Virus record (IMG/VR): IMGVR_UViG_3300050821_007016
Span: 10,648-74,647 of that record
Source of the DNA: a virus
Length of the DNA stretch: 64,000 nt
Direction: 5' to 3' (one strand)
Shown here in pieces: positions 9,115-40,260 of this stretch (positions are counted from its first letter, which is position 1; each line of letters begins with the position of its first letter). The position numbers and the translations under genes are program-made. The notes beneath the pieces are model-generated. The model searched no databases. It saw only the letters and a list, made by a program, of their open reading frames with translations, and was not told where the DNA came from.

Positions 9115-11115
9115 TCAGAGCTGCGGGAAGTTGAAGCCGCCCCGGATGTAGTTGTTGGCCGCGTTGGCGGTGTAAGGGACCGACCAGACGCCGCGGCCGC
9201 GGTTGCGGGCGTTGTTGATGAAGTCGATGGTGGTGCCGGCGCCGCCGATGCTGGTGCTGTAGCTGCCGAGGGTGCGGCCGGGCGCCGGGAATGGTTCGCC
9301 GGGCTGGCCGCTATTGATTCCCTGCGGATCGAGGGAGTTGCCGGAGAGCGTGAGGCCCGTGGCCTGATTGTCTATGCCGCCGAAGGAGATCGCGTCGCCG
9401 TTGCCGACCGCCGCGAGCGAGTTGGCCGCCAGCGTGACCGTGGTCGACGTGGCGCTGCTGGTGACGCCGAGGAACGTGTTGGTCGTGGCGTCGATGACGG
9501 TGTAGTTGTTCCCGGCGTTGGTTTGGATGAACGACGGCACCGAGGCGAAGTGCAGCACGGCGCTCGCCGTCGAGGTGGTGCCGTTGGTGATGGCGCTGGC
9601 CCCGGCCGTCTGGTTATAGACGATGTTGTTGGTGACGGTGTCCGAGGTCAGCGTGTGGAAGAGGGTCGCGGTGCCGCTGGAGCTGGCGTTGACGCTGATG
9701 GTCAGCGTGCCGTTCGCCCCGGCCGTGGTGAATCCGGACGCGGCCGTGACCGTCGCCGTGCCGTTGCCCGGCAGCCTGGCCGGGCACGAGATGATCATCC
9801 CGTTCGGCCAGCCAAGATTGTTGTAATCGTTGTTGCTGTTGTCGACGTTGGTGATGGTGTTCTGATTGAGGGTGAAGTTGCCGGTGACCTGGTAGCCGTT
9901 GCTGCTGTTGCCGTCCTGAACCTGGATGCCGAACCCCGAAAGGCTGGTGCTGATGCCGTTGGAGATGATGTTGTGGTCAATGGTTGAAGGTGCGCCGCCG
10001 TTGTTGAGCAGGCCCTCACCGTCCGACTCCGCCAACGCCCCGGTGATGTCGGTCGATTCCTGCACCACGTTGTAGGAGATGACGCTGGGGCCGATGCCGA
10101 TGTTGATGGCCCCCGCCGGTCGAATGAAGAGGTTGTCGTAGACGGTGCCGCCCGGGCGAATCTGCTCGCTGCTGGCAGGCTGCGAGCAGATGTTGTTTCG
10201 GAAATAACCCGGCCCGGTGCCGACCACCGCGATGTAGACGTTGTGGTTGAGGTTGCACATGATGGCGCCGGTGACGCTGGCGTTCCAGCCGTTGTGGTCG
10301 AACGTGCAGTCGTCGATCACCCAGTTGTTCTCGATGTTCGACAGGAAGATGCCCTGCGACTCGCCGGGCTGATCGTTGAGGTGCGAGTTGGCGTTGTAGT
10401 TGTCGACGAAGATGCACTTCCGGATCCATAGTCCGTTGAAGTCCAGCGGCTCCCAGATGATGCTGTCCCAGAAGAAGCGGAACAGGCAGTCCTCGAACAG
10501 GAATTTGCTTCCGACGCTGTTGTTGTTGTTGAAGAAGCCGTCGATCTCCAGCGTGGTATCGCCGGACACGAAGCCTCCGTTGTTGGGGTCGCGGCTATAG
10601 GCGTAGAAGTCCCAGCCGACGATCGCGACGTTGTTGCATTTCTGGAGGTTGTCCATGAAGATTATGGCGCCGCCCGCGCCGACGTGCGCGACGCTCGACT
10701 GGATGCTGGGTCGCGCTCCCGTGCCGTAGGTCGTGCAGACGATCATGCCGCTGGCGGTGTGGTCGCCGTAGACGGTGAACGCTGGCGAGATCACCGCGCC
10801 GGGGCCGGAGAAGCTGCCGAAGCTGCTTAAGTCGTCGTTCAGGAACGTGTCGCCCTGGTTGAGTAGCAGCCAGTCCGGCTTGCCGTCGCGGATTAACGAT
10901 AGCCCTTTGCTGATGGTTTTGACCGGACTGGCTTGTGTGCCGGGATTAGTGTCCAGACCCGCGTTGGCGACGTAGATTTGATTTGTCCCCGTATTGGCGG
11001 GGTTGTTCCCCTGCAAGACCGGCGCGGTCGGCGTGAACGTGGTGAAGCCGTTGTTGCCGGGCGCCTGCTGGACCGGAAACTGGATTATCGGGGCGAGAGG
11101 TCCGGTCCTGTACAT
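9115..11115 (-). CDS. Right-handed parallel beta-helix protein (DUF1565-like N-motif; depolymerase/adhesin-like)
   Basis: YVANAGLDTNPGTQASPVKTISKGL motif; Asn ladders (FDHNGW, NHNVY, NNI). Confidence 0.75.
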   Translation of the reverse strand: MYRTGPLAPIIQFPVQQAPGNNGFTTFTPTAPVLQGNNPANTGTNQIYVANAGLDTNPGTQASPVKTISKGLSLIRDGKPDWLLLNQGDTFLNDDLSSFGSFSGPGAVISPAFTVYGDHTASGMIVCTTYGTGARPSIQSSVAHVGAGGAIIFMDNLQKCNNVAIVGWDFYAYSRDPNNGGFVSGDTTLEIDGFFNNNNSVGSKFLFEDCLFRFFWDSIIWEPLDFNGLWIRKCIFVDNYNANSHLNDQPGESQGIFLSNIENNWVIDDCTFDHNGWNASVTGAIMCNLNHNVYIAVVGTGPGYFRNNICSQPASSEQIRPGGTVYDNLFIRPAGAINIGIGPSVISYNVVQESTDITGALAESDGEGLLNNGGAPSTIDHNIISNGISTSLSGFGIQVQDGNSSNGYQVTGNFTLNQNTITNVDNSNNDYNNLGWPNGMIISCPARLPGNGTATVTAASGFTTAGANGTLTISVNASSSGTATLFHTLTSDTVTNNIVYNQTAGASAITNGTTSTASAVLHFASVPSFIQTNAGNNYTVIDATTNTFLGVTSSATSTTVTLAANSLAAVGNGDAISFGGIDNQATGLTLSGNSLDPQGINSGQPGEPFPAPGRTLGSYSTSIGGAGTTIDFINNARNRGRGVWSVPYTANAANNYIRGGFNFPQL

Positions 11116-18871: not shown

Positions 18872-19987
18872 TCAGACGCCGAGCATGCCGCTGACGGCGA
18901 AGGGCATCCGAAGGATCGTTCCCCACACGCCGCTGGTCATCTTCTGCTTCCAGCTGGAGGGCTCGGGGATGAGCTTGTGCGAGCGGAGCTTCTCGTTGAA
19001 GGCCGGGTAGGCGACCTTCTGGTTGTCGACCTTGTCCACGATGATCTGGAACAGGTTGCCGACGGCCGAGTAGCCCTGGTTGTTCGTGGTCGTCTTGGCG
19101 CCGTACTGCGGGGCCGGGACGATCTTCATGTTCGGGAAGCCCTCTTTCAAAAGTCCCGCCACCGTCACGCCGAAGGAGTTCGCGAACTTCATCGCCAGCT
19201 GCGACTGCGGCGACAGCGCCAGCGTCATCGGGTCGTCCATGCCGACGGCGCCGTTGGTCTGGTTGATGATCTGCTCCACCACGGCGAGGATGTCGTTGTA
19301 GACCTCGTTGGCGGTAGCTGCCGGCGAGCCGGAGTTGAACCAGGTGGTGCCGCCCCAAGCCTTCACCGCCGGCGACAGGTAGGCCGACAGGAACGGGTTG
19401 TTGAGCAGGCCGTAGTTCTGCAGGTTCACGATGCCGAACGCGTAGGCGAGGTTGCCGAAGCGGTTGAGCAGGCCTGAGGCCGTGCCCGTCAGCTCGCTGA
19501 CGTAGTTGATCCGCATCAGTCCGGCCCGCTCCGTCTCCCGCTCGCCGTAGGCGATGAAGGTCTGGAAGAGGTACGACTGGAACTGCGGGTAGTTGAAGTT
19601 GATGCCGGTGCGGCCGTTGTTCGAGAAGTCGTCGTAGCTGGTGACCTCGCCGTCCTCTTCGATGACCGGGAAGATGCGGGTCTCTTCGAGCCAGTCGCCG
19701 GCCTTCTTCTCGCCGCCGAGGATTTTCGCGATCTGCAGCGGCGCGAACACGACGCGGATCACGTCGGGGTCGATCGCCGTCGTCAGCATCATCGGCAGCG
19801 CCGCGTTCGGGTCGGTCGAGAGGTTGCCCGCGGCGTCCATCGCCAGCCCGACTAGGGACCGGTCCGAGTTCTTCCACTCGTCGGGCACGAGCATCCTGAC
19901 GCCGGGGAGAACCAGCCCGTTGGCCTCGTAGACCGGCCTAAGCTCATTCCACGCTGCGATCGCTGCATTCCGGTCCATCGAGGTCAC
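18872..19987 (-). CDS. Major capsid protein (DUF2184 family)
   Basis: LAMDAA...IDPDVIRVVFAP...KKAGDW...YGERE...YGLLNNP...QKMTSGVWG. Confidence 0.9.
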   Translation of the reverse strand: MTSMDRNAAIAAWNELRPVYEANGLVLPGVRMLVPDEWKNSDRSLVGLAMDAAGNLSTDPNAALPMMLTTAIDPDVIRVVFAPLQIAKILGGEKKAGDWLEETRIFPVIEEDGEVTSYDDFSNNGRTGINFNYPQFQSYLFQTFIAYGERETERAGLMRINYVSELTGTASGLLNRFGNLAYAFGIVNLQNYGLLNNPFLSAYLSPAVKAWGGTTWFNSGSPAATANEVYNDILAVVEQIINQTNGAVGMDDPMTLALSPQSQLAMKFANSFGVTVAGLLKEGFPNMKIVPAPQYGAKTTTNNQGYSAVGNLFQIIVDKVDNQKVAYPAFNEKLRSHKLIPEPSSWKQKMTSGVWGTILRMPFAVSGMLGV

Positions 19988-21006: not shown

Positions 21007-23190
21007 TCACAGGGTCGAGATGTTCTCCAGGCCGGGGGCCAGCTTGAGCGCCTTGTCCACCGCGTCCATCGCGATCGTCTGCGAGGAGTGATGCTCGGGC
21101 GCCCGCGCGCCGGCCTTCGGCAGCGTCTTGAGGATCGGCAGCAGCGCGTCAGCGTGGAGCGTCTTGGCGCCGTCCACGCTACGCATGACCAAGGCGTGGC
21201 GGTAGACGTCGGCCGCGCTGTCGAACGCCATCTTGGAGTCGATCTCGCCGACCCACGGCGCGACCTCCGCGATCGCCACCCTGACGCCGCGCTCGTTGTC
21301 CTTGAGTGCCTTCAGCTGCTTCTGGAACTCAGCGGCCTGCACCTGCAGCGCCGCGTCCATCGCCGGCTTGCTCACCATGTCCTTGTCCTTCTCGTCTTTG
21401 TCCGGGAACTCGTCGCCGCCAGCCGGGCTGGCCGAGAGGTTGCTCGACGGTCCGCCCGCGGCGATGTTCTGCCATTCGGGGGGCATCATGTCGCAGACCT
21501 TCTGGATGTCGTCCTCGCCCATGCCCTTCTCGCGCAGGAAGGCTTTCATCGGCTCGGCGTCGAAACCCTTCTTCTCGCCGGACTCGGCGCCTGGCGGGAA
21601 ATCCTTCTTCTGGGGCTCTGGCTTGTCGATCGGGCCGACCTTCGCGGCCTCCTCGACCTCCTCCGGCTTGCCGCCGAACGGCTCGTCAGAAGCTTCCATG
21701 CCGCTGAAGGCGTCGACGGCCTTAGCGAGGTCCTCCATCGAGGCGTCGAGCGCTATGCCCTTGCGGAGCTTGCCCTCGGCCGCCTTGCGGATGCCGGCCA
21801 GCAGGTCCTTCTTGCTGGCGTTGAAATTCTTGGTGGTGAGCGACTTGAACAGATCGACCGGCAGCGTGATCTTCTGGTCCATCGCGATTTGCGGCGCGAT
21901 CTTCGCGGCCACGTGGTTGAGGACAACCGCTGCAAACCTGGTCGGCTTAGCCATCTCGCTCTCCTTGAGTGCCTCGTCGCCGACGACCACGTCGGGTCCG
22001 GCTCGTCCGTCTTCCACTAACGCTACGTGATTGAAAACGATGTCCCGCATCACTCCGTCGTAGTCGGTACCACGGAAATTTCCCGGTGTCATGTCCGGCT
22101 TGTAGTGGTAGCCGGCCGACAGCTCCTGCTGCCTTCCGGTCTCTATCGCGTCGATCGCCTCCTGCGAGTTAACGAACAGCGAGTTGTCGAGGTACTCGCC
22201 ATCGAACTCCGCGTCGGTCCCGAGCGAGCCAACGGTCTCATACGGGTGATGGTCGTCCGCGCTTACGGGCACGTGTTTGATAAGCAATTGCACGCCATTC
22301 AGCGTCGGCGCGGCCTTCGCAAGCTCCTCCGGGTCCCGTAGCAAAAAGTAGACGCGGTCGGGCTCCAGCCCGATCTCTTCCCAGCCCGGAATCTCCTCGC
22401 CGCGGTAGGGGCAAACGTTGGCCTTCGAGACGTGGGTTCGCTTGACGATCAGCCGGCCGTCGCGGGTCTTCTCGCGGACCGAGTCGCGGTCCATCGCGAT
22501 CTCGAATCGCGAATCAGCGCGCGGGCCGAACGACCTGTCCATCGCCATCGCGGAGTCCTGCGCCTGACTGACTCGATCTGAGTCACTCTTCTTCGGCGTC
22601 TGCGAGTTGCAGCACGCCTTCGGCTCGATCGGCCGGTCCTCGTGGAAGTAATCGCCGAGCTTCTCGTTCAGCTCCTCGTACCAGCCGCACTTCTCGTTGC
22701 CGCCGTAGAAGCAGTTCTCGCAGCGCACCGCGCGCTCGACGTAGCCGACCTCCTCCTTGGACGCGGAACCCCCCGCGCCCTCGGCCAGCTTGCCGGCGTG
22801 CTCCTTGACGACGCCTGGGTCCGGCGTGGCGTCCGGCGTGGGCCAGGACGCGAACTCGCCGCACGACCCGCAGTCTTCGCCGCCATCAACGGCCTCCTGC
22901 GATCCCAGCACCACGCAGAGGTCGCAGCCCTTCTTGTGCTTGCCCTCCGCCGGCATCGCGTCCTTCGGAACCAGCATCCGGCAGGCGTAGCACTGCGCGT
23001 GCTGGTCGCGCATCTCCGGCGCCGCGTTCTTCGGCGGCTCCATATACTCGAAGATCGAGCGGTCGTTCTTGGGGGCCGATTCGTCGGCGGCGACGAACTC
23101 CTCGCCCACCTTCTTCGGAATGCCGAGCGTCGAGTGGCCGTGCGCTGCGGCCTCCATCGCGTTATGCTGCTTCTCGCTCACTGACGGCAT
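21007..23190 (-). CDS. DUF2213 prohead protease/scaffold with N-terminal Cys-rich extension
   Basis: SKANVCPYRGEEIP...HVPV...ELSAGY...NHVALVEDGRAGPDVVVGD. Confidence 0.9.
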   Translation of the reverse strand: MPSVSEKQHNAMEAAAHGHSTLGIPKKVGEEFVAADESAPKNDRSIFEYMEPPKNAAPEMRDQHAQCYACRMLVPKDAMPAEGKHKKGCDLCVVLGSQEAVDGGEDCGSCGEFASWPTPDATPDPGVVKEHAGKLAEGAGGSASKEEVGYVERAVRCENCFYGGNEKCGWYEELNEKLGDYFHEDRPIEPKACCNSQTPKKSDSDRVSQAQDSAMAMDRSFGPRADSRFEIAMDRDSVREKTRDGRLIVKRTHVSKANVCPYRGEEIPGWEEIGLEPDRVYFLLRDPEELAKAAPTLNGVQLLIKHVPVSADDHHPYETVGSLGTDAEFDGEYLDNSLFVNSQEAIDAIETGRQQELSAGYHYKPDMTPGNFRGTDYDGVMRDIVFNHVALVEDGRAGPDVVVGDEALKESEMAKPTRFAAVVLNHVAAKIAPQIAMDQKITLPVDLFKSLTTKNFNASKKDLLAGIRKAAEGKLRKGIALDASMEDLAKAVDAFSGMEASDEPFGGKPEEVEEAAKVGPIDKPEPQKKDFPPGAESGEKKGFDAEPMKAFLREKGMGEDDIQKVCDMMPPEWQNIAAGGPSSNLSASPAGGDEFPDKDEKDKDMVSKPAMDAALQVQAAEFQKQLKALKDNERGVRVAIAEVAPWVGEIDSKMAFDSAADVYRHALVMRSVDGAKTLHADALLPILKTLPKAGARAPEHHSSQTIAMDAVDKALKLAPGLENISTL

Positions 23191-23203
23191 GGCGTCGCGT
23201 TTA

Positions 23204-23425
23204 TCACGCGACCCGATTCCGCACAAACCGGATGCGCTGCTCTCCGGGCAGCTTCGCCCTCGGGTTGCCCTCGTCGTCCAGGATCGACTGCACCAGCATG
23301 TCCTTGATGATGACCTTCATCAGCCTCTGGACCAGGCGCCGCCGGGAAATCTGACGGATGCGGCAGCAGGCATCGATGTAGTTGGCCTGTTCCTCGCTCA
23401 GAGTCATTTTGACCCTGATGTCCAC
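23204..23425 (-). CDS. Small putative ribbon-helix-helix protein
   Basis: VKMTLSEEQANYIDACCRIRQISRRRLVQRL; GGAGG before GTG; start uncertain. Confidence 0.45.
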   Translation of the reverse strand: MDIRVKMTLSEEQANYIDACCRIRQISRRRLVQRLMKVIIKDMLVQSILDDEGNPRAKLPGEQRIRFVRNRVA

Positions 23426-24259: not shown

Positions 24260-25048
24260 TCAGCTGAAGCCTTTGATGACCGACCGGCTCACGCAGCGGC
24301 AGTTGATCAGCGTCCCCGGCCAGATGTAGTCGTTCACCTTGGGATCGGGATCGAACCAGCCCTTCGCCGGATCGTACTCCTTGCCGGAGTTGGCGAGGTG
24401 GGTCGGGCGCGGCTCCTTGCCGCCGTGGGAGTGAAGCCAGACCGCCTTCAGGCCCAGTTCGACCTGGCGCACGCGGACGAACACTGAAGTCGCCTTGTTG
24501 TTTTGATCTCGGGCGATCAGCGCGGCGCGCGCCCGCGTCAGGTCATAGCGCGCCTCCAGCATCTTCGTCAGCGAGCCGAGGTCGCGGCCGGCGGTGACCG
24601 AGCGCATCACCAGGCCCTCGACGTCCGAATGATACTTCTGCGCGATCGAGCGGATCAGCCCGACGTTCTCCGCGATCGTCGCCTCGTAGGCGTCGCGCAT
24701 GGTGGGCGTCATGTTGAAGGCGATCGTCATCCCGGAATCGCCGAGGATGCGCTTGAGCGACGCCGCGGACCGACGCTCGGCCGACTTGGCGAACCAGCGC
24801 GCCAGCTTCGGCGCCGTCTCGTTGATCCGCTTCTCCCAGCGCTTGCCGAGGTAGGAAAGCTCGCGCTGCAGCTCCTTGGCCGGCGTCGCGTCCATCGCCA
24901 GCCGCGGCGGATTGTCCCGGTACTGCGCCTTGATCCAGTGCGCGTAGGACCGCGCCATAGCCTCGACCAGAGCCGCGATCCGGCGGCGGTAGTCGGCCTG
25001 GATGCCGGCGTTGGGGTGCACGGGCCGGAGCGGCTTACTCTTCTTCAA
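24260..25048 (-). CDS. Head morphogenesis protein (Mu gpF / SPP1 gp7 family)
   Basis: RAALIARDQNNKA...WLHS...PRPTH...PGTLINCRC; start approximate. Confidence 0.88.
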   Translation of the reverse strand: MKKSKPLRPVHPNAGIQADYRRRIAALVEAMARSYAHWIKAQYRDNPPRLAMDATPAKELQRELSYLGKRWEKRINETAPKLARWFAKSAERRSAASLKRILGDSGMTIAFNMTPTMRDAYEATIAENVGLIRSIAQKYHSDVEGLVMRSVTAGRDLGSLTKMLEARYDLTRARAALIARDQNNKATSVFVRVRQVELGLKAVWLHSHGGKEPRPTHLANSGKEYDPAKGWFDPDPKVNDYIWPGTLINCRCVSRSVIKGFS

Positions 25049-25241
25049 GGTCCTCGCCCTCGGCTGCGGCCTCGTAGTCGGCTCGCAGATCATCGTCCGA
25101 ATCGCCGCCGAGCACCGATTCAAACGCCTCTTCCTCGGCGTCGCGATCGGCGATCGACCGCGAGGCCTCCTCCGGCGTCATGATCGAGATCGAGCCATCA
25201 GCCATCTCACCCGGTGCCCACTTTGCCTTGTCAGAGTTCAT
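25035..25241 (-). CDS. Small acidic hypothetical protein
   Basis: 68 aa, GGAGG RBS, overlaps its neighbours. Confidence 0.5.
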   Translation of the reverse strand: MNSDKAKWAPGEMADGSISIMTPEEASRSIADRDAEEEAFESVLGGDSDDDLRADYEAAAEGEDLEEE

Positions 25242-28200
25242 GCCATTCCTCCAGGTGAATCACGGTGGTGGCGCCGGTCGACAGCGCCTGGGACAGCTTC
25301 TCTACCTTGCCAACCTTGAAATAGGTGCGTCCGGCGAAGACTACCTCATCCTCGCCGCCGTGGACCGACAGCTTCTTGATGTCGGCCGCTCGTGAACTTC
25401 CCTTGGTGGGCGTCACGACGAACCGCACGTTGCCGCTAAAGACGCCGTTCGGCTTCTTCTTGCTTGTGCTCATTAGAGCCTTTTCCTGAATGATATGGCC
25501 CTCGGCGTAGTAGGCGATCTGCTCCTGAGACAAGTTCGTGTTGCGGATGAGGGGTTCGCCCTGGTAGCTCGGCATCGACTTGAGTGCCTTGTTGACCATC
25601 GCGACGTAGACGTGCTGGGCCGGGGTCCATTTGTCGGAGCGCAGCGCGGCGTTGACCTGGCCGAAACCCCCGTCGCTATAGTTCTTTATCAGCGCGCATT
25701 CGAAGCCGGAGATCGGGTATCCGTATGCCTCGGCCTCCTTTGCATACTTCTGGAAGTCCTCGACCAGGTCCGCCTTGCCCATCATCTTCGCCAGAGCGTC
25801 GAAGCCCTCGGCCTGGGTCTCGGATATGCCGAGTTCCTTGATGTATTTCTTGTTCTTTTCGGCCTTTTCCTTGGCGAGCGCGACGGCCTTGTCCGCGAGT
25901 GCCTTTGCGTGGGCGGCTGCCTGGGCTTTCTCGGCCTCTAGCTTTGCTGCAGCTGCCTTTTGCTGTTCGCTCTGCAGCGGCTTCATTGCCTCGACGAGGT
26001 CTTTGAAGTCGTTGACCTTCTCTTGCAGCTTATCTGGCGTGGTTTTATTGAGCCACTTAGCGTTGAACTCGTTGACTAATCCTTGCGCCTTCAGGCTGTC
26101 CTGGGGCGCCCCCGGGACATATTGAATTTTCAGCGGCACATTCTTTTTCGCCTTTTCCAGCTCTCCCGCGGTCGCTGGACCGTGCTTCGTGGCAGGTGGC
26201 GGCGCTGGCGCCTTTGGTGGCTCCTGCTTGATCTCGACCTTCTGAGGCTCGGGTTTCGATTTGGCAGCCTCGGCTTTGGCCGCGGCCAGTTCCTCCGGCG
26301 TCATCTTCACGCCCTTGTATTTGGTGACGCCGCCCTCCTTGGTTTTCTCCAACTTCATGCCGAGGGTTTTCGCCATCTGAGGCATCGAGATAGTCGGCCA
26401 GTTCAGCGCCGCCAGCATCTCCTGCGTCGTAGTCCCCTTCGTGAGCAGGTGCGCGGCGTGCTCCTTTTTCGATTTGAATGCGGGCGTCGATCCCCCGCCG
26501 CCGCCTCCAGAGGTGAACTTGCCATCTGGCGCCCGGGGATGCTTGGACTCCTCGAAGGAGGCCTCGTCAGTGGCGCCAAAAGGGCCGGCGGCATCGTTAG
26601 CCCCGCCTCCCTCTCCGCCTTGCCCGTCGGCCTCTTTCTCGAACTCGGTGGCGCTCCCTCCCGCGCCCGGCCCGAGCAGGCCCTCCTCGGCCGGCGGCTC
26701 CGGCACGTCGTCGGGGTCGAGCCCGGTATAGGGCAGGTCCGGGTCCTCGATGATCGCCTTCCTGATCTCGCCCGGCGCCAGCGCGCCCATGTCGACGTAC
26801 TTCTGGTTGCGGTCGGCGTCGTCCTTCTCCTTCTGGCCCTTCTCCGCCAGCGTCATCTCGCGCAGCGGCTTCCATGTGAAGGTGATCTCGGGGTCGATCT
26901 CGCCCCACAGCGACAGCTGCTCGAAGTTGATGATCCGCCGCAGGTTCGGGTCCAGCACCCGCTTCTGGTAGGCCGCGATCGTGTCGTCGTAGGTCTTGAT
27001 CTCGCCCTCGCTCGACGCGTTCAGCCCCGAGGGCTGGATGCCGGTGAACTTCACGAGCGGGATGCGGTGCACGCTCGCCATGTGCTCCTGCGCCTGCGCC
27101 TGCAGCTCGTGCAGCCCGCTCAGCGGCGCGGACACGTTGGCGAAGTCCTCGGTCGCTTCGTTGATCACGTAGGTGTTGGCGTTGTCGCGCATCATGTTGA
27201 ACATCGCGACGCGGGACAGCATCTGCGCCGCGTTGTTGTTGTTCAACAGCGTCGACAGGTCGGTCTTGAGCACCATCACCGAGAACGAGTGGATCAGCTG
27301 CGCCACCGAGGAGCGGGTCTGCAGCCAGATGTCGACGTATGGCTTGGCCATCTCCGACAGCGATATGCCGCCGAAAGCGTAGGCCGGCTTGAGCATGTCC
27401 GGCACCGGGTGCGCGATGAACGTCTGCAGCCGCGAGCCGTGGAACTCCTTGCCCATCACGAACCAGACCTGCGGGTTGTACCAGTCCGCCCGCGTCGGGT
27501 CCCACGCGTTGTAGGCCAGCGGGTAGGTCCAGACCGGCTCGATCGTTTGCAGCCGCTTGAACGAGCCGGGCGTGACCTTGCTCCGGCTGACTGCGTCATC
27601 GGCGACGCCGGTGCCGATCGCCGTCTTCATCTCGTCCGCCGTCGGCTCGATGTTGTTGGTCCAGATGTCCAGCAGCAGGTGCGACCGGCCGAAGAAGCCG
27701 TTGTTGCGCGACTGCGCGTGGAAGCGGTGCGCGACCTCCAGCCGGAGCTGGTCGTCCTGCAGCGCCTTGACCTTGTCGGTCTTGCCGGCCTCCTTGACGC
27801 GCTTCCTCTTCTCGTCCGGATCGGCCATGCGCTCGGCGAAGCCCTCCGGGTCTTTCTCGGCCTCCTCCTGGTTGGCCTTCTCGTCGCCGACCACATCAAA
27901 ATCAATCCATTCTCTCGTCGCATCGTCGGCGATCGTCTCGGCCATCACCCGATACTCGGGCCGCTGCGCCAGGGCGCTTAGGAAGCTGTAGCCAAGGAAG
28001 CCATTGCCGTCGCCGGGGAAGTTGTCGAAGCTGCCGCCGGCCGCCCACGCGTCGCTGCAGAAGCTGAGGTTGCCCATCAGGGCGCTGTCCATCGCCATCG
28101 ACATCGTGGCCGGGACCGCAGCCTTCGGGAAATCCGGCAGCCGGAACGGCGAGTTGTCCCTGGTGCGCTCGACGCGCTGCGAGTAGCGCTCGAAGACCTC

Positions 28201-28686
28201 GGTGATCTGCGGCAGCATCTCCATCCAGCGGTTGGGATCGACCTTATCTTTTGGCTCGGCTGGTACGGTTTCCGACATGATAGACGTAGGAGCCGGAGAT
28301 GCTGGCGTTATCGGTGCTTCTTCTGATTTATGGTGGCGAGCGCCGCCCCATTGGGGGCCATGATGAACCTTCTTGATCTTAAGATGCTCTCTGAACATCT
28401 TTGCTTCGATCGCTTCGATCACCTCTAGCGGCGTTTTGCTTACCCATTCCCCTACCGTTTTGGCGTCCGTTTTCAGGTCGGAGATTATCTCCCATTCGAA
28501 CCGAGTAGCCGTCTCCTGGTCGGGCATCTCATAGGCGGCGAAAATCTTCAGCTTATGGCCGTTGCCGGTCTGCAGCTGCCGAAGCCTCTTGTCGATGTCG
28601 CGGTAGGTGAGGCCGATTTTGGTAACGCGGTGACCGCGAGAACGCGCGATGACGTAGAGCTTGGGAACCTCGACCGTTTCCGTCAT
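25231..28686 (-). CDS. Portal protein (DUF1073) fused to N-terminal T5orf172/GIY-YIG-like domain and C-terminal wHTH + ADP-ribosyltransferase
   Basis: Portal motifs LAQRPEYR, LKPAYAFGG, IPLVKFTGIQPSGLNASSEGEI; N-terminal LYVI...KIG...RLRQLQTGN...GEW; C-terminal IKNYS...VNAALR...LIR...MSTS...EDEVVF. Confidence 0.9.
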   Translation of the reverse strand: MTETVEVPKLYVIARSRGHRVTKIGLTYRDIDKRLRQLQTGNGHKLKIFAAYEMPDQETATRFEWEIISDLKTDAKTVGEWVSKTPLEVIEAIEAKMFREHLKIKKVHHGPQWGGARHHKSEEAPITPASPAPTSIMSETVPAEPKDKVDPNRWMEMLPQITEVFERYSQRVERTRDNSPFRLPDFPKAAVPATMSMAMDSALMGNLSFCSDAWAAGGSFDNFPGDGNGFLGYSFLSALAQRPEYRVMAETIADDATREWIDFDVVGDEKANQEEAEKDPEGFAERMADPDEKRKRVKEAGKTDKVKALQDDQLRLEVAHRFHAQSRNNGFFGRSHLLLDIWTNNIEPTADEMKTAIGTGVADDAVSRSKVTPGSFKRLQTIEPVWTYPLAYNAWDPTRADWYNPQVWFVMGKEFHGSRLQTFIAHPVPDMLKPAYAFGGISLSEMAKPYVDIWLQTRSSVAQLIHSFSVMVLKTDLSTLLNNNNAAQMLSRVAMFNMMRDNANTYVINEATEDFANVSAPLSGLHELQAQAQEHMASVHRIPLVKFTGIQPSGLNASSEGEIKTYDDTIAAYQKRVLDPNLRRIINFEQLSLWGEIDPEITFTWKPLREMTLAEKGQKEKDDADRNQKYVDMGALAPGEIRKAIIEDPDLPYTGLDPDDVPEPPAEEGLLGPGAGGSATEFEKEADGQGGEGGGANDAAGPFGATDEASFEESKHPRAPDGKFTSGGGGGGSTPAFKSKKEHAAHLLTKGTTTQEMLAALNWPTISMPQMAKTLGMKLEKTKEGGVTKYKGVKMTPEELAAAKAEAAKSKPEPQKVEIKQEPPKAPAPPPATKHGPATAGELEKAKKNVPLKIQYVPGAPQDSLKAQGLVNEFNAKWLNKTTPDKLQEKVNDFKDLVEAMKPLQSEQQKAAAAKLEAEKAQAAAHAKALADKAVALAKEKAEKNKKYIKELGISETQAEGFDALAKMMGKADLVEDFQKYAKEAEAYGYPISGFECALIKNYSDGGFGQVNAALRSDKWTPAQHVYVAMVNKALKSMPSYQGEPLIRNTNLSQEQIAYYAEGHIIQEKALMSTSKKKPNGVFSGNVRFVVTPTKGSSRAADIKKLSVHGGEDEVVFAGRTYFKVGKVEKLSQALSTGATTVIHLEEWHEL

Positions 28687-28743: not shown

Positions 28744-29223
28744 TCAATGCCGGCGATGATGCCGCGGGCACGCTACCTGGTACCCGAAGGGCCATCCGAC
28801 GTAGCAGATTTCAGAGCCGCCTCCGCCCGATCCGCCACTGTAAGCGCCACCCGAACCGCCACCAGCGCCGCCAGCTCCACCGCCTCCACCACCAGCTCCA
28901 GCGCCAGCGCCGCCTCCCGCGCCTCCAGAGCCAGCTCCCGCGCCGCCTCCTCCACCAGCACCGCCGCCACCTGAACCTCCACCGCCGCCAGCGCCCGCGC
29001 CTCCGCCTCCTGAACCCCCTCCAGAACCGCCACCGCCGCCTCCTGAGCCGCCTCCGCCTCCCCCGCCACCTGACCCGCCCCCTCCGCCGCCGGAGCCACC
29101 ACCGGCCCCGCCACCGCCACCAGCGCCGCAACCAGCGCCGCCTCCCCCACCGCCGCCCCCGTGCGCGAGCGCGGGGCCGGCCAAAAGGATCAGCGTGAGG
29201 GTAGCGGCGAGGAGCTTCTTCAT
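28744..29223 (-). CDS. Secreted glycine-rich protein
   Basis: MKKLLAATLTLILLAGPALA signal, >100-aa Gly/Ala/Ser tract, then CYVGWPFGYQVAC; GGAGG RBS. Confidence 0.7.
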   Translation of the reverse strand: MKKLLAATLTLILLAGPALAHGGGGGGGGAGCGAGGGGGAGGGSGGGGGGSGGGGGGGGSGGGGGGSGGGSGGGGAGAGGGGGSGGGGAGGGGGAGAGSGGAGGGAGAGAGGGGGGAGGAGGGSGGAYSGGSGGGGSEICYVGWPFGYQVACPRHHRRH

Positions 29224-29327
29224 ATCCAGCCTCCAGTAAGCCAGTGCGCGATGACCAGCACCGCGATGACCACGAGCACCCAGAAGCCGAAGGCGACCAG
29301 GGCGGCCTCGCGGTCGTTCAGGTCCAT
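29220..29327 (-). CDS. 35-aa membrane peptide
   Basis: MDLNDREAALVAFGFWVLVVIAVLVIAHWLTGGWI; coupled overlaps. Confidence 0.5.
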   Translation of the reverse strand: MDLNDREAALVAFGFWVLVVIAVLVIAHWLTGGWI

Positions 29328-29641
29328 CAGGACGCGGTTGCGACGATCTGGACAGAACCGAGGACTTGCGGCGCGGCGTCGACCTCAACGTCGATCAAGG
29401 CCGAGAAGCTGGCACCGCCCACCGCTAGCGCGACGCTGACGACGTCGGTTCCGGCCGCGAGCGCGACGCCGGTGGCCGTCAGGCCGTCCGCGGACGCCGT
29501 GACCGTCTCCGTGGCAGGCGTGGTGTTCGTCCAGGCCGGGGCCGCGTCGGGCTTCGGCGTGACGATCATGGGATTGCCGTTCGTGTCGAAGAACGCCAGC
29601 GAATACGCGACCGAGTGACCGACCGTTACCTTGATGCCCAT
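29327..29641 (-). CDS. Stand-alone Ig-like domain protein
   Basis: DTNGNP...W...VTASADGLTATGVALAAGT; an in-frame upstream start at 29746 is also possible. Confidence 0.65.
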   Translation of the reverse strand: MGIKVTVGHSVAYSLAFFDTNGNPMIVTPKPDAAPAWTNTTPATETVTASADGLTATGVALAAGTDVVSVALAVGGASFSALIDVEVDAAPQVLGSVQIVATAS

Positions 29642-29745
29642 GATGTGTCTCCGATTCGGGTGAGGATGATGGTGATGCCGAACGTGCGCGATGATTACCA
29701 CACTTTTCAAGACCTGGCGGCGACGGTGGAGGAATTGACTCAGCA

Positions 29746-29949
29746 TTATTTTGTCTCCCCGATGGACGGCCTGGTCCTTGGCGCATGCTCGCTCTGGACC
29801 ATGAGCCTGTCGCCGTAGCGCTTGCGAAGGGTCTGCTGCCGGGTTCGGTGGCACTTCTTGCATTTCCCCATCTTACCGTCGCTATTGCCATCGGCGGCGT
29901 AGTAGTCGTCGAGGGGTTTGCGCTGGAGGCAGTGGCTGCATGTTTTCAT
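29746..29949 (-). CDS. Zinc-finger protein (KTCSHC...CKKC)
   Basis: Motif resembles the N-terminal Zn module of phage HNH/EndoVII proteins. Confidence 0.6.
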   Translation of the reverse strand: MKTCSHCLQRKPLDDYYAADGNSDGKMGKCKKCHRTRQQTLRKRYGDRLMVQSEHAPRTRPSIGETK

Positions 29950-30137
29950 GTCCAGCTCCCGTCGATGCCTGCCAGCAGCATCTTCCACGATAACTGCATG
30001 GCCTCGAACGATGCCTCGCAGAGCAGGGCGACTTCGTCCTTGCGCTTCGGTAGCGGGAGGATGGTGGCCTCGGCGTCGATCGAGCCGCGCCTCATAGCCT
30101 TCTCGATCGGGAATCGGATCAGGGTCGCGGTCATGAG
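29946..30137 (-). CDS. Hypothetical protein
   Basis: Coupled small ORF. Confidence 0.45.
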   Translation of the reverse strand, partial: LMTATLIRFPIEKAMRRGSIDAEATILPLPKRKDEVALLCEASFEAMQLSWKMLLAGIDGSWT

Positions 30138-30370
30138 CTTGTGTGTCCGCACCAGGGAGGGGAATAGCCGGCTCCGGGAGAGGCCTCGCGGGCCTCCTGC
30201 TCCTCCTTTTTCCGCCGCTTGATCTCGTCGTCCATCTTGACCTGGACGGCCGTGAGGCCCTGCAAGAATCCAATTTTGTAGGCGAGGGCATAATTACGGC
30301 CAACATGCTCTGTGCTGATCTCTAAGAGCCAGCCGTCGATCTGCTCGTTGGTGAATGTTTCGGTCGTCAT
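30131..30370 (-). CDS. Hypothetical protein
   Basis: MTTETFTNEQ...; ATGA overlap. Confidence 0.5.
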   Translation of the reverse strand: MTTETFTNEQIDGWLLEISTEHVGRNYALAYKIGFLQGLTAVQVKMDDEIKRRKKEEQEAREASPGAGYSPPWCGHTSS

Positions 30371-31568: not shown

Positions 31569-33239
31569 TTAAATCCGGCCGGCCCGCGCGATCTGCTGCA
31601 GCATCGATCCGGTCACCTCGATCGGCTCCGGCGGCATCGGCGCGTAGCGGATCACGACCGCGTCCGCCTGGTTCGGGCTCTTGGTGCCCTCCGGCTTCTT
31701 TTCGATCACGATCTTGCCGAGGTCGTTCTGCTTGTAGGTCGCCTGCGACAGCTCCGCCACCAGCTTCATCAGGTTCGGGTTGTTGCGGCTGAGCGAGACC
31801 ATGTCGTCGACCTTGCACGGCGTGCCCTCGGCGCCGCCGGTCTCCATGTGCCGCACGGCGCGGTAGGTCTTCTGAAATCGCTTCCGCAGCGCCCACCACG
31901 ATTGTGCCTTGTGGTTGGCGAAGTAATCCTCGTTAGTGCGGCCGGTGTCTCCCGAGAGGCCGATCGTGCCCTCGACGATGCCCTCCGGGTCCACCACACC
32001 CACCGAGCCTCGGTAGCCTATGGCCTTGACCATCCGAGCCTTGGCCCGCTGGCGCCGCTCGTTGATCACCCTGGAGTCGCCGCCCACGCCAGCCCCGAGG
32101 CCGTCGGCGTCGTAGCGGAACTCGGTCAGCTCGTGGTCATCGCAGAGGTCGAACACGTACTCCGTCGACGAGAAGATGTCCGAGCCCTTGCCGCTCCACT
32201 CCTCGGTCTCCAGCACCTCGATGCCCTTGCAGATGCAGACCGCGTTCTTGTCATCGCCCTCGTCGGCCACGTCGAACGCGATCGCCTTGCGCCCAGCCGG
32301 CGCGATGCCGAGCTTCTCGCAGGCGCCGATCGCCGCGCGCACCCAGATGCCGGGGATCACCACGCCCTTGACAGAGGCCGCGTAGTCGCGGTCGATCTCC
32401 TGCGCCACCACGACCGGGTCTAGCTCCGCGCACTGCTTGTCGTACCACGCCTGGTCCTTCCGAGGGTCGTCGCGCCAGTCGAAGATGAACACGTCGATCT
32501 TGCCGCCCCAGCGCTTCTGGGCGAACGGGTTCGCCATGCCGCGCACCGACGACATGTCGATCCGGCAGTTGGTGGTCTGCGACAGCGAGGCCTCGACCAG
32601 CTCGGGCCGCGGCAGATGGGCCGCCTCGTCCACGAAGTAGATGCTGGTGCGGTCGCCGCGGCCGATGTCGTCGCCGCCTTCTCCCGCGATCAGCGAGCCG
32701 GTGTTCGGGAACGTGATCCGCATGAACGGGGCGTCGCGCCACGCCACCCAGTCGCCCTTGAACTCAATGGGCAGGTTTTCCATGAAGGTCCGGCCCTTGG
32801 GGAAGATAGGCTTGAGCGTACCGATCTTGTCGACGTACTCGCCCTTGCGCGAACCGAACCCGATCGACAGCCCCTCGTAGAGCAGGCAGAGCGTGCATGA
32901 CAGCGCCATCGACAGCCAGGTCGCGCCCACGTCGCGGGACTTCTCGATCAGGCCGGGGCGGCGGTTGCGCCACTTGTCGATCACGTACTCGACGAACTCG
33001 CGCTGCTTCGGGAACATGATGAAAGGGATCGCCGCCGGCAGGCCGATCTCGACGTTGCGCGGTTCGTGCATCATGCCCCAGTCGCAGATGAAGTCGGCCG
33101 GCGCGGTGCGGTAGTGGTCCATGTAGGCCGGCACGACCTCGGGGTGCTCGCGCAGCCGCTTCAGGTTTTCCATGCGGGTGTTCATCGCCAGCGCGTAGTC
33201 GGGGTTCTTCCAGTCCCACTTGATCGGCTTAAGCAACAT
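31569..33239 (-). CDS. terL: Terminase large subunit
   Basis: EKSRDVGATW (Walker A-like), YFVDEAAH (Walker B), AFDVADEGDD and KSPNQADA nuclease motifs. Confidence 0.93.
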   Translation of the reverse strand: MLLKPIKWDWKNPDYALAMNTRMENLKRLREHPEVVPAYMDHYRTAPADFICDWGMMHEPRNVEIGLPAAIPFIMFPKQREFVEYVIDKWRNRRPGLIEKSRDVGATWLSMALSCTLCLLYEGLSIGFGSRKGEYVDKIGTLKPIFPKGRTFMENLPIEFKGDWVAWRDAPFMRITFPNTGSLIAGEGGDDIGRGDRTSIYFVDEAAHLPRPELVEASLSQTTNCRIDMSSVRGMANPFAQKRWGGKIDVFIFDWRDDPRKDQAWYDKQCAELDPVVVAQEIDRDYAASVKGVVIPGIWVRAAIGACEKLGIAPAGRKAIAFDVADEGDDKNAVCICKGIEVLETEEWSGKGSDIFSSTEYVFDLCDDHELTEFRYDADGLGAGVGGDSRVINERRQRAKARMVKAIGYRGSVGVVDPEGIVEGTIGLSGDTGRTNEDYFANHKAQSWWALRKRFQKTYRAVRHMETGGAEGTPCKVDDMVSLSRNNPNLMKLVAELSQATYKQNDLGKIVIEKKPEGTKSPNQADAVVIRYAPMPPEPIEVTGSMLQQIARAGRI

Positions 33240-33411
33240 TCCAGGGACCAAAATCGTTGGCGATTGGCCAGAACGCCCCGTCGGATACCGGCCACCGAAA
33301 GCAGGCGATGGTCACGGTCGAGCCCGCGGTTATGATCCAGCGCAGCCTGAACTCGGCGATCGCCTGGTTCGACGCGTCCTTCCATGCCGGGTAGAAGAAC
33401 AGGTCGATCAT
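33229..33411 (-). CDS. Hypothetical protein
   Basis: Coupled small ORF (MIDLFFYPAW). Confidence 0.45.
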   Translation of the reverse strand: MIDLFFYPAWKDASNQAIAEFRLRWIITAGSTVTIACFRWPVSDGAFWPIANDFGPWNVA

Positions 33412-39507: not shown

Positions 39508-40260
39508 ATGACGAACCAGAAACTAGATCAAGCGTTGGCCTTCCTGCAGGGCCGAAAGCTGGACGCGATGCTACTCGGGCCGGCCGATCGGATCACGGAG
39601 AACCAGAGCGTAAGCGATCAGGCGGTCGAATTGTTGGAGCAGATGCTTCCGGGCCAGAAACTCATGGTGGCGGACGGATTGCCGCCCACCGCGATCATCG
39701 CCCCGGAGGAGAGGAAGAACGCGTGGAAAGGCAAGCGGCCTCGACCCACGCACTCGATGCACTTCGAACAATCTTCGAAGAAGGAGGAGGACCCGGCGAC
39801 CAGAAAGCTCCGCAAGGAGCTGGCCGACGCGGAGGCGAAGAAGAAGGCCGAGCGCTTAGCGCGGCTGAATGAACTCAAACAGGCGGCCAAGGCTGCCGCA
39901 ACCCCGAAGGAGAGTACCATGAGTGCTGCTACCCACCACACCACCACGAAGGCCGATCAGGTGAAGGCCTTGCGCGTCAAGCGGGCGACGACCAAGGCCG
40001 CACCCAAGAAGGCCGCACCGGCGAAGCCGGCTAAGGCCAAGCAGACCGCAAAGGCGATCCCAGGCATCCGTCCTGGTTCCAAGTTGGAAATTGTGGCCGG
40101 CCTGTTGACCCGCAAGGAGGGTTGCACCACGGCCGACGTCCTCAAGGCCACCGACTGGCCGGCGGTCTCGATGCCGCAAATGGCGAAGTCGGCCGGGCTG
40201 AAGCTCCGCAAGGAGAAGGCCAAAGGGGAACCCACCCGGTATTATGGGACGGCGGCTTAG
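39508..40260 (+). CDS. Lys/Ala-rich protein with C-terminal DUF3489-like winged helix (possible internal start at 39919)
   Basis: GSKLEIVAGLLTRKEGCTTADVLKATDW...GLKLRKEK...RYY. Confidence 0.7.
   Translation: MTNQKLDQALAFLQGRKLDAMLLGPADRITENQSVSDQAVELLEQMLPGQKLMVADGLPPTAIIAPEERKNAWKGKRPRPTHSMHFEQSSKKEEDPATRKLRKELADAEAKKKAERLARLNELKQAAKAAATPKESTMSAATHHTTTKADQVKALRVKRATTKAAPKKAAPAKPAKAKQTAKAIPGIRPGSKLEIVAGLLTRKEGCTTADVLKATDWPAVSMPQMAKSAGLKLRKEKAKGEPTRYYGTAA

Follow-up and report, generated by a model that had tools for sequence, protein, structure and literature searches.

A phage portal protein ending in a predicted ADP-ribosyltransferase, with a conserved tag and an overlapping acidic partner gene

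The 1151-aa ORF at positions 25231..28686 (minus strand) of the window, that is, the whole 64,000-nt stretch analysed (positions 10,648 to 74,647 of IMG/VR record IMGVR_UViG_3300050821_007016), is the true portal gene of an uncultured soil phage whose complete 74.6-kb genome has a head module of the PB1/BcepF1 type, and its product ends in a predicted R-S-ExE ADP-ribosyltransferase (ART) with all catalytic residues intact. An acidic gene overlaps the stop codon of the portal gene and travels with the ART. From these features, it is considered reasonably probable that the portal doubles as the carrier of an injected cargo, which would be cleaved, ejected and active in ADP-ribosylation, and silenced by its acidic partner until packaged.

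The portal gene and its genomic setting

The completeness of the genome was given by a 97-bp terminal repeat, and no near-identical DNA match was found in cultured phages. The portal gene sits between the gene of the terminase large subunit (TerL; 31569..33251, minus strand), which gives the packaging-module context, and the MuF, protease and capsid genes, being followed first by the acidic ORF and then, two genes downstream, by a separate short head protein of the MuF (gpF/SPP1 gp7-like) kind that carries no toxin domain (PF04233; 287-aa ORF, 24260..25123, minus strand). The listed TTG of this ORF is probably not its true start, which would lie further downstream. On the same strand are the genes of a head maturation protease (DUF2213) that continues into a scaffold-like region and contains five A-M-D sites (21007..23226), and of the major capsid protein (18872..19987), in which an A-M-D at residues 49-51 aligns with A62-M-D64 of PB1.

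The portal core (residues 195-690; 26617..28104, minus strand) is homologous to gp19 of E217, Pa193 and PB1. In particular, Phage_portal_3 (PF06381) matched residues 235-627 in Pfam with an E-value of 6e-68, covering profile positions 3-355 of 357, and PHROGs returned the portal family phrog_146 (E 2e-88), while TIGR01555 gave only a partial match below its cut-off. Comparison of the core with gp19 of E217 and Pa193 resulted in E-values of 7e-35 and 3e-34, respectively, and a profile search in 1e-41. No MuF match was found in the portal ORF by Pfam, and no peptidase domain (MPTase) by Pfam or PHROGs. The first-pass annotation had described the ORF as a four-domain protein comprising a T5orf172-like domain, the portal, an acidic linker, a winged helix, a Lys/Ala-rich helix and an ART motif; all these features were recovered with Pfam, PHROGs, AlphaFold2 and Foldseek, but the number four is an undercount, as at least six segments are separable. 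The lower GC content that it reported for the extensions is real and sharpest at third codon positions (GC3), with values of 0.95 in the portal core, 0.93 in TerL and 0.91 in MuF, whereas the C-terminal module has 0.78 and the GIY-YIG domain 0.73.

The protein starts with a T5orf172/MUG113-type GIY-YIG domain (residues 1-105; 28372..28686, minus strand), identified by Pfam as MUG113 (PF13455, a sister of T5orf172 in the GIY-YIG clan) at residues 23-94 (E 8e-5) with a marginal score of 23.5 bits on the protein and 28.7 bits in six-frame translation (cut-off 22.3), and PF01541, the GIY-YIG family itself, was sub-threshold. Possible counterparts of the nuclease catalytic residues (Tyr, Arg, Glu), namely Y11, K-I-G25, R34/R36 and E66, were located by eye in this single sequence. 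The domain is specific to this genome and absent from every other long protein; the relatives start with M..GWGG.RPGAGRKP, compared with ..PQWGGARHH.. in the present portal ORF. It is followed by a portal leader (residues 106-200; 28087..28371, minus strand) ending in the nearly invariant M-A-M-D200; this motif is a candidate site of cleavage during maturation, by which the GIY-YIG domain would be lost. The PB1 portal has V-A-M-D at 74-76, and LC-MS of the Pa193 portal lacked its first 93 aa (PMC11456595). HMMER gave no alignment of the N-terminal 200 residues with PB1-type portals, so the correspondence of M-A-M-D and V-A-M-D is one of motif only. The GIY-YIG domain would have arisen when a gene resembling a homing endonuclease was fused in frame to the portal gene in this lineage, and removal of the first 200 residues at the conserved M-A-M-D200 would probably explain why the fusion is tolerated.

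Such a unique N-terminal fusion, together with the short length and low depth of the matching soil contigs, could point to separate genes merged by a sequencing error during assembly or gene calling, a possibility that the first-pass annotation had raised. This explanation is hardly credible, since the whole 417-aa C-terminal module ends more than 60 related portals from independent assemblies (31-68% identity). Moreover, soil contigs of four studies extend, without a single difference or gap, across the junction of the GIY-YIG domain with the portal (28298-28565), that of the core with the tag (26436-26871) and the overlap at the stop (25127-25529).

The C-terminal ADP-ribosyltransferase module

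Residues 700-1151 were modelled by AlphaFold2 with a mean pLDDT of 86. The first domain of the module is a DUF3489-like winged helix-turn-helix (residues 740-810; 26257..26469, minus strand; pLDDT 91-95), which adopts the H-H-H-beta-beta order of this fold in the model. The portal segment itself had no Pfam match, and it shares 53% identity with its paralogue, the C-terminus of a free-standing 250-aa gene (39508..40260, plus strand), which scored 29.3 bits against PF11994 (DUF3489; cut-off 29.5). A Pro/Lys-rich linker, disordered in the model, comes next (residues 811-840; 26167..26256, minus strand), followed by a conserved helical domain (residues 841-1040; 25567..26166, minus strand) that contains a long Lys/Ala-rich helix spanning about residues 907-952 and the catalytic Arg1016 (25639-25641).

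The beta core of the ART occupies residues 1041-1151 (25234..25566, minus strand), or 1046-1147 in the AlphaFold2 model, and includes S1073-T-S1075 (25462-25470) and E1112-D-E1114 (25345-25353). Thus, the catalytic Arg, the S-T-S and the E-x-E are all present and in order. Pfam identified ADPrib_exo_Tox at residues 1055-1136 (E 2e-5, 24 bits), exceeding its cut-off. The best Foldseek matches were Tre1, C3bot, XopAI and Vis (E about 1e-10), and for Tre1, C3bot, Vis, iota Ia and SpvB the E-values were between 1e-9 and 1e-10 and the target TM-scores reached 0.78. The R-S-E effectors (Tre1 of the Tre1-Tri1 pair, PDB 6drh; Vis, 4xzj; C3bot; XopAI), which share the R, S-T-S and E-x-E, were the closest in both structure and sequence, but they are delivered by secretion systems and not by a virion, and their identity is only 15-24%. 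Among cultured phages, tblastn with the C-terminal module matched only three Pseudomonas phages in four records, namely phiH1 (genus Pamexvirus), ZQG1 and PA_LZ02, with about 30% identity over the ART.

The modest Pfam score would also suit a decayed, catalytically dead ART-like fold kept as internal bulk, as a DNA-spooling core or as a pressure element. We regard this as very improbable, as R1016, S1073, E1112 and E1114 are invariant in alignments of 43 and 6 sequences including relatives down to 30% identity, the confident model matches active ARTs, and a dedicated partner gene has been maintained.

The conserved tag and the acidic partner

Between the portal core and the winged helix, residues 696-724 (26515..26601, minus strand) comprise two A-x-D sites (A-N-D698 and A-T-D707) and a tag (F711-x-E713, H716-P-R...G-K-F724), the sequence of residues 711-724 being FEESKHPRAPDGKF, within a Gly/acidic linker. 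The consensus A-x-D..[FW]xExxHPRxxxGKF was found upstream of every payload module in the family, with one to three tags per protein, and the payloads behind it were ART, NUDIX, Acb1, zeta-like kinase, TopoIB, histidine phosphatase and ART-PolyVal modules. Furthermore, free-standing payload ORFs were also headed by the tag (L098 and L007). The tag was considered as a mere linker and this was rejected, given its conservation to the residue and its position at the head of free-standing ORFs. Pfam, NCBIfam and PHROGs hold no family for it, and no literature on an HPR motif in a portal or MuF context was found. The survey of variable C-termini on homologous portals, proposed in the first-pass annotation, returned hundreds of related portals with differing enzyme modules; this and the separate, toxin-less MuF support its view of the portal, and not MuF, as the carrier.

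The processing at ANDA/ATDE that had also been proposed gained support from comparison of the sequences, which makes these sites plausible cleavage points. An A-x-D triplet lies 9-11 residues upstream of HPR in 120 out of 157 tags, and A-M-D recurs at eight sites in the head proteins within the window, including the capsid site aligned with PB1; A-M-D sites mark the head proteins of this phage's lineage. However, the tag sites are A-N-D and A-T-D, not A-M-D as elsewhere, and with eight A-x-D triplets in the 1151-aa protein, more than this triplet is needed to specify a site. The presumed processing enzyme is the DUF2213 head protease; a literature search by title and abstract gave nothing on DUF2213 protease specificity.

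The acidic partner is a 68-aa ORF (25035..25241, minus strand) with a net charge of about -18, whose ATG overlaps the portal stop and is preceded by GGAGGA 5 nt upstream. Members of its family followed 10 of the 11 distinct ART-ending ORFs vs. none of 58 other viral portal loci, as raw counts that ignore shared ancestry. The exception is an ART group (L026/28/29) with a different 113-aa ORF in place, and in phiH1 the ORF after the ART is acidic, with no visible membership in the family. Profile hits comprised 87 cluster representatives (median length 70 aa, median charge -15); their matching size led to the rejection of a chance ORF. The GC3 of the partner was like that of the ART module, and its model showed a folded hairpin plus helices. 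No family for this ORF was found in Pfam, NCBIfam or PHROGs, and the ESM Atlas returned nothing usable. Overall, the acidic partner is a candidate ART inhibitor. The earlier comparison with polymorphic toxins was apt, and it is strengthened by this coupled gene, absent from the first-pass annotation.

Proposed delivery and relation to known systems

In E217 and Pa193, the C-terminal barrel of the portal points into the head and residues 529-765 lack density (PMC10329688, PMC11456595); packaging of the payload would follow from this topology. We infer that, probably, the ART is released by cleavage inside the capsid and enters the host together with the DNA. Beyond the barrel helix, the portal C-terminus would extend into the lumen of the capsid, so each procapsid would receive twelve payload copies without a separate targeting step. 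The DUF2213 protease, apparently cutting after A-M-D/A-x-D, would cleave at A-N-D698 and/or A-T-D707 before the tag, freeing a basic 48-kDa protein (E708-L1151) with the tag at its start, which would exit via the tail along with the DNA. At an early stage of infection, the freed ART would use NAD+ and ADP-ribosylate arginine of host proteins, in host takeover or counter-defence. Upon late expression, the translationally coupled acidic mini-protein would bind the ART and silence it until packaged.

Alternatively, the ART may stay covalently on the portal dodecamer and never enter the next host; it would then act either before assembly, in the cell that produces the virions, or inside the capsid as one of its components. 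PB1-type portals do keep their invisible C-terminal 237 residues, which are perhaps simply flexible (PMC11456595), and portal proteins can affect host physiology in the infected cell, as described for T7 gp8 (bioRxiv 10.64898/2026.01.27.700999). We consider a tethered enzyme unlikely: the coupled gene of the putative inhibitor argues for suppression of the activity, and against a use for it, in the producing cell, the capsid interior has no NAD+, and the Acb1 of the relatives is useful only within a newly infected cell. Moreover, the conserved A-x-D and tag at every module boundary and the free-standing tag-headed payload genes fit release better.

The ART could also be freed on lysis, like Bxa, with adjacent cells or other organisms as its targets; the acidic gene would then be a classical immunity gene of the lysogen. 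A toxin with an adjacent small gene matches the layout of MuF polymorphic toxins (PMC5576092, PMC11699363), and the fold matches the secreted effectors Tre1, XopAI and C3. In contrast, the payload-laden portals come from 70-75-kb free viral contigs, while related portals inside bacterial genomes are almost all bare, with the ART and the partner in none of the 73 loci collected using the portal alignment as query, and a portal-bound protein has no evident route of export or cell entry except the tail. Such an extracellular toxin is thus distinctly improbable.

Extending injection of the freed ART to the whole tag family, we suggest tentatively that A-x-D..[FW]xExxHPRxxxGKF may be a general signal of tailed phages to cut and ship: the head protease would cut after the Asp, the exposed tag would govern retention in or ejection from the capsid, and any enzyme behind it would become injected cargo, ART cargo having a dedicated family of 70-aa acidic inhibitors. 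If true, phages would possess a portable code for protein delivery that has so far gone undescribed, together with a class of antidotes of its own.

Proteins that arrive with the DNA are believed to decide the first minutes of infection in favour of the phage and, to our knowledge, few co-injected proteins are known outside T4, P1, N4 and T7. The portal would offer a simple loading route, with the cargo written onto one protein that every capsid must contain, and the cargoes range from the experimentally known anti-CBASS enzyme Acb1 in the relatives to an arginine ART here that is predicted to be intact. Should the proposed roles of the tag and the A-x-D sites hold, the sequence alone could suffice to recognize injected effectors in uncultured phages, and the tag might provide a handle for loading proteins into capsids. 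Likewise, the acidic partner family, if confirmed as inhibitory, would be a new class of small ART inhibitors.

A precedent in function is T4 Alt, an ART that is packaged in the head, undergoes processing by the prohead protease and enters the host with the DNA, where it modifies arginines of the RNA polymerase, among other proteins (summarised in PMC5512222, PMC9503650). Alt resembles the present case in the proposed head packaging, but it is a free protein loaded into the head and not fused to the portal, the comparison being at the level of the shared ART fold. The fusion of ART, NUDIX, 2H and InPase domains to portal domains was already stated by Iyer et al. in 2017 and 2022, who predicted that effectors (these and PBECR) on the portal or MuF of terminase-portal phages are packaged in the head and injected, and the present ART belongs to their Alt/VIP2 group (PMC5512222, PMC9503650). 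The available text of these papers mentions neither the HPR..GKF tag (0 occurrences of 'HPR') nor an A-x-D cleavage code or a partner gene for portal-borne ARTs. Thus, the present portal-ART fusion is one more example of a computationally described kind, a further member of the theme and no new principle, while the conserved tag and the acidic partner were not found described. As in polyvalent proteins, a GIY-YIG domain, a winged helix and an ART are found on one portal, with the relatives adding NUDIX, Acb1 and kinase-like modules; however, the MPTase, frequent but not obligatory in that class, is absent here and the head protease is the presumed processor.

The MuF polymorphic toxins (Jamet et al. 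2017, PMC5576092; PMC11699363) are similar in that an arginine-type ART forms the C-terminus of a head-morphogenesis protein and a small gene comes next. MuF-ART/immunity pairs have been experimentally tested, Bxa being neutralised by the adjacent Bsi and BAH, and the small-gene product binding and blocking the enzyme (PMC11699363); Tre1 is also restrained by a cognate immunity protein. In contrast, the carrier here is the portal, essential and present in 12 copies per virion, with no ADP-ribosylhydrolase immunity gene seen, and the phage looks like a free 75-kb virus and not a prophage. The partner belongs to a family of 70-aa acidic mini-proteins with no known sequence similarity to Bsi.

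Finally, the PB1-like (Pbunavirus) gp19 proteins share with the present portal the homologous core, the same kind of head module and a C-terminal barrel facing the capsid interior, beyond which about 240 further residues have no density, although their extension is another domain without the HPR..GKF tag, the ART or the acidic partner. A-M-D motifs are likewise found near the start of the PB1-like portal and capsid protein. The density of the E217 capsid protein begins only at residue 66 (PMC10329688), and PB1 residues 62-64 lie just before this first visible residue.

Architecture and setting of the portal fusion

The reading frame at 25231-28686 (minus strand) encodes 1151 residues and contained every element named in the first-pass annotation, including FEESKHPRAPDGKF at residues 711-724. 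It was assigned as a portal in PHROGs (E 2e-88), and the domain search that had been suggested recovered all the GIY-YIG-clan, portal and ADP-ribosyltransferase (ART) matches. In Pfam, these were MUG113 at residues 23-94 (23.5 bits vs. a cut-off of 22.3), a GIY-YIG clan member and sister family of T5orf172, followed by Phage_portal_3 at residues 235-627 (E 6e-68) and ADPrib_exo_Tox at residues 1055-1136 (E 2e-5). Among solved structures, the portal core matched the portals of the Pseudomonas phages Pa193 and E217 (E 7e-35 and 3e-34), and the best counterparts of the C-terminus were Vis and Tre1, both of them ARTs specific for arginine. Residues 700-1151 were modelled with AlphaFold2 from 43 homologues (mean pLDDT 86), and the model comprised a winged helix of three helices and two strands (residues 740-810), a disordered Pro/Lys linker (residues 811-840), a helical domain including one very long Lys/Ala-rich helix, and an ART beta core (residues 1046-1147). 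Its top Foldseek matches were Tre1, C3bot, XopAI and Vis, followed by iota/CDT and SpvB (E ~1e-10 to 1e-9). The R...STS...ExE motif was complete, with R1016, S1073 (of S-T-S), E1112 and E1114 unchanged in relatives down to 30% identity; that the ART is a dead structural domain is given a low probability. Moreover, the lower G+C content previously noticed in the extensions was sharpest at third codon positions (GC3), reaching 0.78 in the C-terminal module and 0.73 in the GIY-YIG domain vs. 0.95 in the portal core, 0.93 in the terminase large subunit and 0.91 in MuF. Overall, the identity and architecture of the portal-ART fusion are close to certain. A free-standing 250-aa gene elsewhere in the window (39508-40260, plus strand) ends in a DUF3489-like winged helix 53% identical to that of the portal payload.

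The portal gene is part of a minus-strand head module of standard layout, ordered as terminase large subunit (31569-33251), small genes including an HNH endonuclease, portal, a 68-aa ORF, MuF (24260-25123), a DUF2213 protease-scaffold fusion (21007-23226), minor head protein and major capsid protein (18872-19987). MuF is short, separate and without a toxin domain, which supports the portal as the carrier, as had been proposed. Between terminase and portal lie the HNH endonuclease gene (29746-30306, minus strand; GC3 0.63) and an ORF of very high GC content (28744-29388, minus strand; up to 0.79 in the profile), and the gap at 28744-30306 looks invaded by mobile or moron genes; the terminase-portal spacing is only ~0.8 kb in the related loci L001 and L005.

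The window is part of one viral contig of 74,647 bp, which has a terminal repeat of 97 bp and is rated as complete. With residues 735-1151 as the query, more than 60 portals of independent metagenomes proved to end in the full 417-aa module (31-68% identity). Furthermore, short, low-depth soil contigs from four metagenomes of four studies, one of which may be the source sample, showed zero differences or gaps over the GIY-YIG/portal junction (28298-28565), the core/tag junction (26436-26871) and the portal stop (25127-25529). The C-terminal fusion is thus no accident of assembly, and an artefact is rated as improbable. The nearest portals in bacterial genomes belonged to Rhizobiales (Hyphomicrobiales) and other Proteobacteria, almost all of them bare, without ART, and the host is likely a soil alphaproteobacterium, with Hyphomicrobiales of soil as the candidates.

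Modular C-termini and a shared cargo tag

A full-length search yielded 394 relatives, the best 120 of which were listed, most of them from contigs of up to ~75 kb. According to precomputed Pfam matches for 119 of these best 120 relatives, ART was present in at least 50, followed by NUDIX (32), Zeta-toxin/AAA_33 kinase-like (10), Hint/intein (8), PF23474 (5), topoisomerase IB (2), histidine phosphatase (1) and ART-PolyVal (1). When protein segments were mapped onto 140 relatives, the payload always followed the portal core. Among individual relatives, P0018 had a core 82% identical and no payload, P0020 shared the winged helix and lacked the ART, and P0002 carried NUDIX plus ART. As close cores bear different payloads, the survey of homologous portals that had been advised found their C-termini to be modular and polymorphic. 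PF23474 was identified in our own scan as Acb1, an anti-CBASS phosphodiesterase experimentally known as a counter-defence enzyme. In P0033 it occupies residues 600-741 (E 3.5e-33) of a portal fusion and precedes the NUDIX and ART modules there, and it was also found in the portals P0036, P0051, P0060 and P0062. Such portal-borne Acb1 supports reading the payloads as injected cargo.

The motif HPRxxxGx[FWY] was found in 97 of 121 relatives, in one to three copies each and always at a module boundary, while the six-frame translation of this genome contained it once. From 157 distinct instances, the extended consensus of this tag was A-x-D, 0-2 residues, [FW]-x-E-(S/G)-(D/K)-H-P-R-x-x-(D)-G-K-F-(G/T)-S-G-G-G, surrounded by Gly-rich disorder, with F or W in 97%, E in 96%, and H, P, R and G in 100% of them. 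In other phages, payload genes that stand alone also carry the tag close to their N-terminus (at locus L098 and in the ORF after the L007 portal), which rules out a mere linker. Possible roles are those of protease exosite, docking peptide and ejection signal. In the lower-GC phage of L098 (1483-5889), two consecutive free-standing genes with ART-like domains each begin with ..[FY]EEHEHPRDxKGK[FW]; the tag can thus stand at the front of separate payload proteins as well. At L007 (9388-10611), a separate 407-aa ORF follows a portal carrying topoisomerase IB; it is extremely acidic (net charge -45) and has its own tag, GGGASDA..PF..GD..F.E.EHPR..GKF, ~85 residues in, resembling a split-off portal extension. 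Longer relatives (P0002, P0004 and others in the alignment of relatives) have a middle module, between the first and second tag, in which a further motif, ..HAWLxNWDxxGTGGDN.., is conserved; it recalls atypical kinases and is absent from the protein of the window. 'HPR' had zero occurrences in Iyer et al. 2017 (PMC5512222), and a full-text literature search found no description of the tag.

Putative cleavage sites and an acidic partner gene

An A-x-D was located 9-11 residues upstream of HPR in 120 of 157 tags, vs. ~9% estimated by chance, and the portal-proximal context GGGAxDA..PFGAxD was also conserved. Moreover, the head proteins of the window contained eight copies of A-M-D, with less than one expected by a rough estimate. 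These were at portal residues 198-200 (28087-28095, minus strand; nearly invariant in the family), MuF residue 76, capsid protein residues 49-51, and protease-scaffold residues 228, 244, 448, 622 and 719. The alignment of the capsid protein with that of phage PB1 opens exactly at G-L-A-M-D/G-S-A-M-D, where A-M-D corresponds to PB1 residues 62-64. In E217, which is close to PB1, the capsid protein is visible only from residue 66 on; the 65 residues before it are not seen, and the authors suspect that they are cleaved off (PMC10329688). The capsid A-M-D of the window thus aligns just before that residue. PB1 also has V-A-M-D at residues 74-76 of its portal, and the first 93 residues of the Pa193 portal are missing from both density and LC-MS (PMC11456595). 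Taken together, this recurrence and these phage data suggest that the DUF2213 head protease of the lineage likely recognizes A-M-D or, more loosely, A-x-D. Regarding the processing previously proposed at ANDA/ATDE, the conserved A-x-D before the tags speaks for it, but the tag sites are not A-M-D and A-x-D appears eight times in the portal protein, so cleavage there stays putative. A C-terminal product from E708 onward, beginning with the tag, is computed to be basic (48 kDa, pI 9.3). Separately, phrog_30637, a single profile of 1119 positions, matched both the portal C-terminal half and the protease domain, suggesting fusions of portal and protease in some phages.

The 68-aa ORF downstream (25035-25241, minus strand) has an ATG overlapping the portal stop (CATGAACTCTGA) and GGAGGA five bases upstream, with ~23 acidic and 5 basic residues and a GC3 of 0.73, similar to that of the ART module. 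In related loci, every distinct portal or payload ORF ending in this ART (L001, L015, L052, L078, L091, L094, L096 and L097; in L090 the partner is fused to the next gene) has a small acidic homologue of it overlapping or abutting the stop, except in the L026 lineage. The partner was found at none of 58 distinct portal loci without ART and none of 73 loci from bacterial genomes; the association with ART was significant (Fisher's exact P = 3e-11, ignoring shared ancestry). Among 1.84 billion representatives, a search with its profile gave 87 clusters, 81 of them of at most 110 aa (median length 70 aa, median net charge -15), sharing the core W-G-x-G-x-x-x-D-G-x-I...T-P-E-E...E-R-D-A-x-E and an acidic tail. 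The AlphaFold2 model of the partner consisted of a short hairpin and two helices (pLDDT 79.5). In a Bacteroides prophage, two neighbouring genes neutralise the MuF-fused arginine ART Bxa: the product of Bsi binds it, and that of BAH is a hydrolase (PMC11699363). By this precedent, the partner is a candidate stoichiometric inhibitor of the ART, a role towards which we lean slightly. An extracellular or inter-bacterial toxin, like Bxa, is an improbable alternative for the portal-borne enzyme. The ART-bearing L026 lineage (L026, L028 and L029, equal to L092, L093 and L095) lacks the acidic partner; its ORF after the ART has 113 aa with a Cys-rich stretch (CDKCSMF...C) and is possibly an alternative inhibitor.

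Possible delivery, known systems and the N-terminal fusion

The C-terminal barrel of the E217 portal projects into the head, and the next ~240 residues are unstructured or mobile (PMC10329688, PMC11456595). Being part of the portal, twelve payload copies would be incorporated in the head, and location of the ART inside the capsid is quite probable. The head protease would cut after D200, removing the GIY-YIG domain with the N-terminal leader, and after D698 or D707, releasing the tag-headed basic ART of 48 kDa, which would exit with the DNA and ADP-ribosylate host arginines early in infection; late in infection, the acidic partner would silence the ART, shielding the producing cell until packaging. 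The chances of release and injection are judged about even. The chief alternative is an enzyme that stays tethered to the portal instead of being injected, as portals can affect host physiology in the infected cell (T7 gp8); however, a dedicated inhibitor, the module-boundary code and the Acb1 cargo of relatives all suit delivery better.

Portal-fused ARTs are of a kind already described computationally, to which the window adds one case: Iyer et al. (2017, PMC5512222; 2022, PMC9503650) report ART, NUDIX, 2H and InPase domains on portals. This protein lacks the defining feature of MuF toxins, MuF within the toxin polypeptide, because MuF is separate here, although by analogy it may act alike. 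The literature searched appears to hold no description of the tag and its A-x-D site, of a family of acidic partners to portal-borne ARTs, or of a GIY-YIG domain joined to the N-terminus of a portal. For the PB1 portal (gp18, L100:4112-6421), the sole annotation is 'minor head protein'. The last 240 residues, which are not seen in cryo-EM of E217 and Pa193, make up a separate domain that lacks the HPR tag and may be the InPase-like domain reported by Iyer et al. for the BcepF1 portal.

The GIY-YIG domain is single-copy in this genome and was found in no other long protein of a 5.8-billion-sequence collection. Relatives start with M..GWGG.RPGAGRKP, vs. ..HHGPQWGGARHH.. at residues 108-119 here. 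It follows that an endonuclease-like gene became joined in frame precisely where the portal once started. Hint/intein domains (PF13403, PF14890) break the core of many related portal genes (loci L003, L004, L017, L018, L025, L031, L048 and L050; proteins P0036, P0038, P0041, P0048, P0065, P0072, P0109 and P0112), which, added to the GIY-YIG fusion here, marks this gene as a hot spot of selfish-element insertion.
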